Origin: a virus
Reading direction: 5' to 3' (one strand)
Length of the DNA: 64,000 nt
UHGV virus genome: UHGV-0060833
Below, in pieces: positions 33,028-34,377 of this stretch. The notes below the pieces were generated by a model that was given only the letters and a program-made list of their open reading frames with translations, was not told the origin of the DNA and searched no databases. The stretch's first letter is position 1, and the number at the start of each line of letters is the position of its first letter. Both the position numbers and the translations under genes were made by a program.

Positions 33028-33492
33028 AGGGTTTTCGTCATGGTTAGCGACTTTGCGGCGGTTTAGAAACTGACCATTAAAGTAAATGCAAACGATGATC
33101 TGATGATGGTAGCGGCCTAAGAAACCAGATGCCACGGGGTATGAGTCGTCCCCCGTCAAAAAAATCGACCGCAGAGTGTCCCCGTCTGTGTATTAGGGAA
33201 CGGGGAGGCACAACAGGTAAGGGCGCTGGTGTGATTAACCAGATGAACGAGAAGGGGCCATCTGTTGGTCAGCGTCCTTTCCTGTTGCGTTTTCTTTTCA
33301 GCGTAACAGCGGTGCTTAACAGCACTTTGGGTACAGTTCCACGAATTTACGGGTATATCCCGTCATGCTGAAGGCGCTAATCACGCTGGAAGCCAGGGTT
33401 GTGCATCCCCTGTTACCGAATTGCAGCCAGGGCGCGGTGCGCCGAAAAGCATACGGAGGTGGAAGCCCTCGCCGGAGACGTACCCGGCAAGT

Positions 33493-33568
33493 GATGGTGT
33501 AGCTCAGCGTTTAGAGCGGTTGACTATTAATCAACGGGTCGATGGTTCAAATCCATCCACCATCGCCA
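33493..33568 (+). tRNA. tRNA; anticodon reads ATT (Asn-type, unusual A at wobble position 34)
   Basis: Full cloverleaf: acceptor GATGGTG/CACCATC, D-arm GCTC/GAGC, anticodon stem GTTGA/TCAAC with loop CTATTAA, T-arm GATGG-TTCAAAT-CCATC, discriminator G, encoded CCA. Confidence 0.8.
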
Positions 33569-33570
33569 AT

Positions 33571-33646
33571 GCCGGTTTAGCTCAGTTGGTAGAGCGCCTG
33601 CCTTGTAAGCAGGATGTCAGCGGTTCGAGTCCGTTAATCGGCACCA
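33571..33646 (+). tRNA. tRNA-Thr (anticodon TGT)
   Basis: Acceptor GCCGGTT/AATCGGC, anticodon stem CCTGC/GCAGG with loop CTTGTAA, T-loop TTCGAGT, encoded CCA; 2 nt after the preceding tRNA. Confidence 0.85.
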
Positions 33647-34377
33647 GCACAACAGGTAAGGGTATTTTGCGACGCCGGAGATCGCCGAGCTTGGCAGAGG
33701 GTTCGAATCCCTACGAAGTACCCTTACCGTTGTGATGAAGTGCAGCTCTTTGAAGCAACCAGAAGATAAGCATCTGGCTTCACAACATAAACCGCAGGAA
33801 CGACCAATAAACGGTAGTCCGTATGGAGAACACCCCGTTGAGGAAGAGGCCTGGCCGGAACCGTAACCGGCACTACAACGTTGAGAACACTGGCGTAACG
33901 GGGTCATATCCCAATCTACGAATAAATGTTGCGTTGCAGCGTGACAACCAGTGTTCTCAACATTGTGGTGAATGCACAGGCTGATGTGCCGCAACTACAG
34001 TAGTGCGCGCTTTGCGGGGCTTGCTACAACCCTGTGTCGGAGTTCAGCACCGACCATCACAGTTTGATTCTCTGGCATGAGCATAACGCTGAAATAAGTC
34101 CAGTCTGGTGCGGCCCGATCACCCGCCGTTAGCTCCACGAAACGGAGCACGTAACAGGTAAGAGCATTCTCCTGTAACGGGTTCATATCCCAATCTACAG
34201 GTCCACCAAGAATGCTCTTTCCGTTGCGGTGAATGCGGCTAAGCGCACGCGGGGAAATGGTTATATCTGTCCATTATTTCTCCTTGTTTCCACGTCCACG
34301 GTGGATAACCAGCCAAAGGACACCGGGAGGCACCCGGCACCGCAACCTTATTTCCCAACCAGTAATGAGGTTAATAA

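Follow-up and report, generated by a model that had tools for sequence, protein, structure and literature searches.

In the early region of phage T7 a related set of RNase III processing hairpins with small tops, R0.3-R1.3, punctuates the polycistronic transcript, and in rRNA operons the processing stems also release spacer tRNAs; irregularities inside a helix can confine RNase III cutting to one strand. Closer to the subject of this report is the dicBF operon of the Qin prophage in E. coli K-12, where, as Faubladier et al. reportedly found in 1990, RNase III generates the 5′ end of the 190-nt precursor of DicF. RNase III makes this end: a Δrnc strain lacks the species, and by primer extension the cut falls between positions 813 and 814 (bioRxiv 10.1101/2023.04.14.536235). 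An alternative, 72-nt form of DicF has a 3′ end that is likewise made by RNase III (PMC9438474). Here we describe a family of hairpins that includes a diverged copy at this K-12 site and four copies in a 64-kb stretch (64,000 nt) of the viral genome UHGV-0060833; the whole stretch is called the window below. Positions 32800-34400 of the window are 99% identical to the phage P1 reference NC_005856, and the hairpin interval lies in the untranslated leader (~1.5 kb) of the C1-repressed ban operon, between the ban promoter and tciA. Our analysis leans, by a modest degree, towards the view that the hairpins are RNase III processing "punctuation" of a polycistronic non-coding transcript, at which the P1 copies would be cut.

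The four copies in the window, with their scores under the family covariance model (R1), are as follows:

33208-33289, plus strand: H1, a family member; -41.7 kcal/mol, z -5.4; R1 45.5 bits on the plus strand against 29.1 on the minus strand
33647-33734, plus strand: H2; -41.7 kcal/mol, z -6.0; R1 60.1 bits against 32.5
33871-33970, plus strand: H4, a diverged member; z -5.6; R1 44.1 bits against 25.3
34150-34228, plus strand: H3, nearest to the family consensus; -35.0 kcal/mol, z -4.9; R1 68 bits against 23.7

The z values compare the fold of the plus-strand RNA with those of dinucleotide shuffles, and none of 200 shuffles folded as well as H1, H2 or H3. R1 finds exactly these four copies in the window, with a clear strand asymmetry (44-68 bits on the plus strand against 24-33 on the minus strand). 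The common 5′ arm, AACAGGTAAGRG, occurs three times exactly and once elsewhere with a single mismatch, against a chance expectation of 0.35 occurrences at up to one mismatch in the window. An earlier note on this DNA, made from the letters alone, had placed three hairpins here with stems built from one shared sequence. Both points hold (the three are H1, H2 and H3, with z values from -4.9 to -6.0 and the exact copies of the arm), but the stems, given as 10-11 bp, actually run to ~18-25 bp with a bulge and a mismatch, and a fourth hairpin was overlooked. This is H4, whose 23-nt arms are 91% complementary and show a diverged form of the shared stem, compensatory changes included. It carries the first copy of a block that the note had rightly seen to recur: positions 33895-33919 and 34174-34198 share 24 of 25 nt (96% identity) and constitute an apical block common to H4 and H3, and a second repeat pair lies at 33952-33975 and 34213-34236. 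The GTGAATGC blocks, which the note had counted with the hairpins, are present at both sites but lie outside them, as the 5′ ends of a second type of structured element (E, described below).

The family was first recognised from the hairpins of P1 relatives and of phages sharing pieces of the region. Its consensus is (G)CACAAC-A-GG-U-AAGAGCAUUG, then 35-70 nt, then CAGUGCUCUU-U-CC-GUUGUG, often with GUGAAUGC next on the 3′ side. The stem contains a bulged A, a U·U mismatch (or U-A pair) and a U·G wobble; its basal part is nearly invariant and the apical 35-70 nt are interchangeable. An exact-pattern scan of IMG/VR with ACAACAGGTAAG-N40-70-CCGTTGYG matched at least 120 viral contigs, and the matches comprise at least 84 distinct hairpins in at least 41 apical clusters at ~85% identity, with tops unrelated to one another. 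We examined two alignments, one of 44 hand-picked sequences and one of 95 distinct model matches. In these, 98.4% of cells are paired, compared with 39-59% in slid controls; 8-10 of the 18 pairs show changes on both sides; and the observed values were reached by none of the shuffles or by at most 2 in 500. Variation is almost absent from the outer 12-13 nt of either side, and it is the inner stem that covaries, as in AAGCUGCUUG/CAGGCAGCUU and AAGCCAAAUCG/CGAUUUGGCUU. The U·G wobble is retained in 73 of the 95 sequences, and the plus-strand score exceeds the minus-strand score in every case. The earlier note's reading of the interval as structured RNA, for which it had proposed looking for covariation among homologues, is thus borne out by the inner-stem covariation in both alignments, the strand asymmetry, the conserved wobble and the co-orientation with tRNAs. 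Rfam searches, at gathering thresholds and at E values up to 10, returned only chance microRNA-precursor matches on the hairpins, and a literature search with the strings ACAACAGGTAAG and CCGTTGTGGTGAA returned unrelated papers only. The family appears to be large, widespread in phages and uncatalogued.

The comparison that carries the RNase III reading comes from K-12. With R1 we found one diverged family copy there, in the Qin prophage between ydfC and dicF (L135 19167-19266, L135 being the Qin locus), scoring 27.2 bits on the plus strand against 12.7 on the minus strand. It has the layout of the family: 7 bp, a bulge, 2 bp, a 1x1 mismatch and at least 10 bp. The published cut can be located in two ways: a distance of 190 nt upstream of the dicF terminator leads to L135 ~19246-19251, and one of 813 nt from a start ~7 nt past a TTGACC-17-TAATCT promoter, which we assigned by reading L135 18403-18431, leads to ~19250-19252. 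Both estimates place it within the hairpin's 3′ arm (19239-19258). The end of the 72-nt DicF maps to ~19454, in the 5′ strand of the 19-bp helix that closes a neighbouring STnc100-like element. To our knowledge, the K-12 hairpin has never been described as part of a family. It is because this family member coincides with a published RNase III cut that we read the hairpins as RNase III sites. The P1 and K-12 copies have the same helix layout and related sequence, and both lie in an untranslated part of a repressor-controlled phage operon near a DicF-position RNA and an STnc100-like element; they differ in that the K-12 copy is single and diverged, with compensatory changes, whereas P1 has four. 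Cleavage inside the helix that depends on rnc is documented only for the K-12 homologue, and for the P1 copies we infer it.

The P1 leader in which such cutting would take place contains these annotated features:

32794-32839, plus strand: promoters P1ban/P2ban and the C1 operator (Op72), from the NC_005856 annotation mapped onto the window; the transcript start for all leader elements
32934-33035, plus strand: annotated "dicF-like region" (NC_005856), which ends in an intrinsic terminator at 33000-33027
33493-33646, plus strand: tRNA-Asn (trnA) and tRNA-Thr (trnT), called by ARAGORN and Rfam
33617-34186, minus strand: plp and upl, annotated open reading frames (NC_005856), antisense to H2, H4 and H3

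After the dicF-like region come trnA, trnT, ~730 nt in which only the minus-strand plp and upl are annotated, tciA, tciB, tciC, trnI and ban; the CCA of tRNA-Thr ends 2 nt 5′ of H2. A scan of the leader for promoters and terminators gave 33000-33027 as the sole intrinsic terminator; it picked up nothing promoter-like inside the leader and nothing resembling a promoter or a terminator at the hairpins themselves. The segments between the named elements (33028-33204, 33296-33492, 33735-33868 and 34062-34150) gave folds no more stable than those of shuffles. We propose that the transcript from the ban promoter would carry the hairpins on the sense strand of its leader, that their double helices would serve as substrates for the host RNase III, and that cuts at them would split the leader into separate molecules. 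The products would be a DicF-position small RNA, an RNA resembling the tag portion of transfer-messenger RNA (tmRNA), the tRNA-Asn/Thr pair, the tRNA-like STnc100-type elements and the tciABC-trnI-ban mRNA; the fate of the excised tops is likewise something we infer as part of this scheme. The predicted stems are co-oriented with the operon and offer about two helical turns, at least 20 bp, of mostly continuous double-stranded RNA on the transcribed strand (18-19 conserved pairs plus apical pairs).

Several points weigh against this interpretation. RNase III has no sequence requirement, which leaves ~13 near-invariant nucleotides per side, kept across unrelated phages, unaccounted for, and a top of 35-70 nt has been kept instead of being shrunk to a small loop. 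The support for RNase III cutting comes from outside P1, the K-12 member is itself diverged (27 bits), and placing the cut within it depends on a gel size and on our own reading of the promoter. Finally, CRISPRi knock-down in the region caused no plaque defect (PMC10695390), so any role would be dispensable for lytic growth in the laboratory. The T7 set R0.3-R1.3 is comparable in that related hairpins would in both cases punctuate a phage polycistronic transcript; there is no sequence relationship, and the family described here combines an almost invariant stem with an interchangeable top of 35-70 nt. A constant scaffold with a variable top is unusual among RNase III sites and suggests exchangeable cargo. 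If the hairpins are processed as proposed, the moron leaders of temperate phages would be arrays of RNA genes (small RNAs, tRNAs, tRNA-like and tmRNA-tag-like elements) split by a common processing signal, and the maturation of DicF by RNase III, a 35-year-old observation, would be tied to a family found in P1-like, lambdoid, SSU5-like and T1-like phages.

The variable tops are the basis of a second explanation, in which the stem is a carrier, as in a pri-miRNA, and the released top is the functional product, a small regulatory RNA or a decoy. Within one apical type we see few substitutions only, so that the tops are discrete types and not a hypermutating stretch; at least 41 discrete and unrelated tops thus sit on a constant scaffold with low variation per type. 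One apical T-loop-like hairpin shows a compensatory change (GUAGAG..CUCUAC to GCAGAG..CUCUGC), tops have been swapped between stems (the 25-nt block common to H3 and H4), and the same lambdoid "moron" site is known to hold small RNAs (PMC4104026). However, we found no motif common to the tops, and by the leader scan the hairpins have no promoter or terminator of their own. We consider such scaffolded small RNAs unlikely, if worth serious attention; the idea is compatible with RNase III processing, not opposed to it.

The family is present in P1-like phages, in lambdoid phages including HK629 and Klebsiella phages, in SSU5-like phage-plasmids and in T1-like virulent phages. Lambdoid copies lie between the Q antiterminator or pR′ and the holin gene (HK629, Klebsiella ST147-VIM1phi7.2), often directly 3′ of an intrinsic terminator, which at one locus is the IsrJ terminator, and in the SSU5-like phage-plasmids the hairpins stand beside tRNAs. 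We tabulated the context of 130 pattern-matched hairpins from 120 IMG/VR loci. Among the matches listed, 31 of the 130 follow a terminator-like T run, 28 adjoin the 3′ end of a tRNA-Thr and four overlap the 5′ end of a tRNA by a few nucleotides; of the tRNAs no more than 3 kb from a hairpin, 49 share its strand and none has the opposite one. Relatives of P1 vary in the hairpin types and tRNAs of this region: an additional hairpin occurs in JL22, an additional tRNA-Tyr in Ro157 and a tRNA-Ser(UGA) in P7 and D6.

The tRNA-Ser(UGA) just mentioned, 87 nt long, stands in for part of the P1 H4-H3 stretch in P7, D6 and SSU5-like phage-plasmids (L003 2607-2693, L008 2788-2874, L010 2983-3069 and L012 2571-2657). 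The tRNA-Sec model fits it nearly as well, at 44-45 bits against a gathering threshold of 47, and a 129-nt family hairpin follows.

A further explanation is an element that acts as DNA: a miniature inverted-repeat mobile element, or inverted repeats serving as recombination linkers for the exchange of modules between mosaic phages. At the DNA level the arms hardly differ across unrelated phages, although the sequence between them does, and module boundaries fall at CACAAC/GTTGTG, the module content varying among P1 relatives. Yet the G·U pairs are retained on one strand only, the orientation to tRNAs is fixed (49 against 0 among the matches listed), the same few transcribed leader positions are occupied and not scattered sites, and the K-12 copy is cut as RNA. 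We therefore regard this explanation as very unlikely, the one-strand G·U pairs and the fixed orientation in particular speaking against a DNA-level role alone. Homologous exchange at the conserved arms may explain the shuffling of tops.

The earlier note suggested degenerate-tRNA content and likened the middle hairpin to a tRNA 3′-half remnant; on this view the family would be a product of decay of a larger phage tRNA cluster. The T-arm-like GGGTTCGAATCCC that it reported is indeed present in H2. The top of that hairpin holds a small hairpin and the T-arm-like GAGGGUUCGAAUCCCU beside a 7-bp acceptor-like extension (AGGG-UUCGAAU-CCCU, then a 7-nt strand that pairs with UAUUUUG), and this juxtaposition of GGGUUCGAAUCCC with an acceptor-like helix speaks for tRNA descent, as do the extra tRNAs of relatives in the region (Tyr, Ser(UGA), Arg) and the tRNA-like layout of the neighbouring E elements. 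In H3 and H4, by contrast, GGG-UUCAUAU-CCC is the only T-arm-like part, and most family members have none: a T-loop-like hairpin is seen in only a few of the apical types, of which there are at least 41, unrelated to one another, and in several of these it sits beside the 5′ arm and not the 3′ arm. ARAGORN and the Rfam tRNA model (RF00005) call only the three known tRNAs and give no match to H1-H4 at E values up to 10. The conserved part is a long basal stem unlike any tRNA arm, and the covariation keeps a hairpin, not a cloverleaf. Decay from tRNA genes is accordingly highly improbable for the hairpins, and the note's mention of tRNA-like content comes nearer the mark for the neighbouring GTGAATGC elements. 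H2 can also be compared with the tRNA-like domain of tmRNA and with the bacterial Y RNA YrlA, in that it too combines a long closing helix with a T-arm-like hairpin; the hairpins, however, have no YrlA, tmRNA or tRNA match, most members lack a T loop, and by eye we saw no G3:U70 pair and no encoded CCA. The sole weak match to bacterial Y RNA (YrlA, RF02553), which we rejected, covers two true tRNAs and not the hairpins.

The E elements begin with the GTGAATGC blocks and follow the hairpins in the leader:

33729-33786, plus strand: E2, short, closed by GUUGUG / CACAAC, from its fold; its first 6 nt are common with the H2 3′ arm
33962-34063, plus strand: E4, multi-hairpin, closed by UGUGGUG / CAUCACA, from its fold; starts with the GTGGTGAATGC block
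34223-34346, plus strand: E3, STnc100-like, closed by GUUGCGGUG / CACCGCAAC; Rfam RF02076 below threshold, z -3.1

Klebsiella phages or phage-plasmids of about 110-120 kb contain 66 nt that match E2 at 95.5% identity. E3 folds into several hairpins and ends 32 nt before the tciA start codon; homologues are found before dicB in K-12, in phage ST64B and in many P1-like phages. Its closing helix covaries (GUUGUGGUG/CACCACAAC, UGUGAUGUGGUG/CACUGCAUCACA). STnc100 is a prophage small RNA related to PasD and a marker of lambdoid prophage regions (bioRxiv 10.64898/2026.05.13.724894), and the elements that open with GTGAATGC match both its model and its closing helix. The model scores are 41.9 bits in the window (34225-34344), 35.1 in ST64B and 34.4 in K-12, a range of 34-42 bits that lies wholly below the gathering threshold of 47; homology with STnc100 is plausible although formal Rfam membership is not reached; the likeness concerns the elements beside the hairpins, not the hairpins. 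The first 6 nt of an E closing helix are the last 6 of the preceding hairpin's 3′ arm, and the two pairings would consequently compete or stack. In phage Akira a GUUGUGG/CCACAAC helix closes the equivalent element, within which lie a true T arm and a sequence resembling a D arm, AGCUCAAUGGCGAGCU, and it is for this reason that we call the E elements tRNA-like in layout.

In the tRNA-like layout of the STnc100-like elements the closing helix is acceptor-like, the first hairpin resembles a D arm and the last one adjoins the 3′ strand. Such elements (window 34223-34346; L135 19445-19595; L138 1733-1868) directly precede the first protein gene, which is tciA in P1 and dicB in Qin.

Upstream of H1 the leader contains a further conserved element:

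33030-33205, plus strand: carries a tmRNA-type tag frame that opens with GCA at 33088, closes with TAA at 33118-33120 and reads ANDDLMMVAA-stop

The frame, which follows UAAAU, is GCA AAC GAU GAU CUG AUG AUG GUA GCG GCC UAA; on its 3′ side come a covarying hairpin and then a small hairpin (33178-33205). The element adjoins H1, the tag frame lying 90 nt upstream of it. Sequence matching the 177 nt that separate the leader terminator from H1 (33028-33204) occurs in 331 phage records, among them virulent phages (N4-like, Vi01-like and T1-like) as well as lambdoid and P1-like phages; there it is unannotated and usually lies beside tRNA genes. Lambdoid loci have a family hairpin on either side of it, directly after tR′. 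A scan in which just the upstream context and the first eight bases were fixed returned 132 copies with 18 distinct peptides and 30 distinct 33-nt frames. The peptides include ANDDVVLMAA, ANEEMYLAVA, ANDEQFLAVA, ANDNTFLAVA and ANDNVASRYALAA. All 10-codon frames stop at codon 11 and one variant stops after codon 13. Entropies of 0.88, 0.53 and 1.18 at codon positions 1, 2 and 3 indicate that the third position varies most, a codon-like pattern. The element has the GCA resume codon and hydrophobic ..AA or ..VA end of a tmRNA tag. The Rfam tmRNA models match in six of six phages tested, below threshold (tmRNA_permuted at 24-33 bits against a gathering threshold of 47). ARAGORN finds no tmRNA for the element. 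We looked for a canonical tRNA-like domain in KP8, Akira, Vi01 and RCIP0103, both visually and from predicted folds; this gave tRNA-like pieces, none of them with alanine identity, and no G3:U70 helix was seen by eye. In a 2014 census the phages listed with ssrA are mycobacteriophages and Bacillus phage G alone (PMC4131195), and our literature search found no description of the element.

The upstream context of the element resembles that of two-piece tmRNAs, and one could suppose that the hairpins are parts of a phage-borne split tmRNA-like system, in which RNase III cutting at them would free the tag RNA as template for ANDDLMMVAA-stop and either H2-type hairpins or neighbouring tRNA-like elements would supply a tRNA-like partner. 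We hold this to be improbable. Were it true, many enterobacterial phages could re-tag or divert stalled host ribosomes; the tag element, if functional, would represent a form of phage interference with ribosome rescue of which the literature search found no description.

Two further features were seen around this element in other phages. In Klebsiella phage KP8 an unannotated tRNA-like sequence (L136 1669-1793) directly follows it, with an acceptor UACUGGU/ACCAGUA, a T arm GGUUCGAAUCC and an encoded ACCA end, and a 9-bp helix, GUACUCUUU/AAAGAGUAC, encloses both the tag element and the tRNA-like sequence. In T1-like phages (L138 ~1447-1480, L139 ~1451-1478) a near-consensus sigma-70 promoter, TTGACA-17-TAGATT, lies ~10 nt upstream; there the tag element would be the 5′ end of its own transcript.

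The invariant arms themselves invite comparison with small RNAs of the host. AgvB, encoded at a prophage site that the family also occupies, uses the consensus of GcvB R1 targets, CACAACA, and this motif is present in the 5′ arm; the 3′ arm and tail of H2, CUUACCGUUGUGAUG, equal CUUACGGUUGUGAUG of E. coli GcvB at all but one position, the matching stretch being the most invariant part of the family. The 5′ arm (CACAACAGGUAAG) might thus be a sponge site for GcvB, as in AgvB, or the 3′ arm a mimic of the GcvB seed. The resemblance is statistically striking, yet it does not stem from a blind search, the 5′ arm has a better partner in its own 3′ arm than in GcvB, the Rfam models for AgvB and AsxR give no match, and the helix that ties up the two arms has a folding energy of about -35 to -42 kcal/mol. 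Because of this sequestration we rank the idea low and consider it quite unlikely. The stretches compared are window 33721-33735 and L133 1252-1268 (E. coli gcvB), at the start of the R1 seed.

AgvB and AsxR share with the family a niche downstream of pR′ in lambdoid prophages, the CACAACA motif and a conserved-plus-variable design; they differ in being 51-60 nt long with their own promoter and terminator, AsxR being antisense to the stx2 (late) transcript. Their models (RF02702 and RF02703) found no match in P1 or in 19 + 13 related loci. We rejected membership of the hairpins among the AgvB, AsxR and Pas small RNAs, which have promoters and terminators of their own, AsxR at least being antisense, and whose Rfam models do not match. 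Integron attC sites were also considered and set aside: the core-site consensus is R″ RYYYAAC and R′ GTTRRRY, from which GCACAAC and GTTGTGA depart at one and two positions, and no integrase is encoded nearby. The single-stranded boxA sequence recognised by Nus factors in rrn and lambda nut (UGCUCUUUAACAA or CGCUCUUA) has a weak likeness, UGCUCUUU(CC) or UGCUCUUA(CC), in the consensus 3′ arm and in H3, where it is base-paired; in H1, H2 and H4 the boxA-like part covaries away. A boxA function is ranked low because the arm is sequestered in the helix and this part is lost by covariation.

It could also be held that the interval encodes the minus-strand products Plp and Upl and that the hairpins are incidental. 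The P1 reference annotation lists both genes, plp as a putative lipoprotein, and gives them predicted promoters; in that respect the earlier note, which had described the open reading frames of the interval as lacking ribosome-binding sites, needs correcting. Pfam, however, gives nothing significant on plp, upl or the longest plus-strand open reading frames (the best value, for upl, is 0.078, far below the cut-off), most P1-like phage and plasmid records list no gene over the stretch, and in P7, D6, SJ46 and Ro157 this mosaic region is rearranged, with the reading frames interrupted or replaced. The conserved features of the interval are RNA helices on the opposite strand. We find a coding explanation hardly credible, and plp and upl are probably not genes but mis-annotations; these doubtful entries in the P1 reference would give way to a set of structured RNAs.

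Only H1 among the four hairpins has a U-rich tail (GCGUUUUCUUUUC, window 33289-33300; GUUUUCUUUUC directly 3′ of the hairpin), which could be a partial terminator or attenuator before the tRNA pair.

By eye, the upstream part of the P1 dicF-like region recognisably resembles the sequence that precedes dicF in K-12 Qin: window 32880-33027 and Qin have in common GCGCGGCGGTAAG(C/T)ATGG ... CAGGTTGACCAT, which in Qin lies 5′ of dicF. The last ~50 nt and the terminator of the P1 region are unlike DicF, and the Rfam DicF model does not match the region. On these grounds P1 may make a DicF-position small RNA with a different seed.

Elsewhere in the window, at 12526-12731, the C4 antisense RNA and its a1/b1 targets (the P1 immI region) score above the Rfam thresholds; this is a known system, unrelated to the hairpins.

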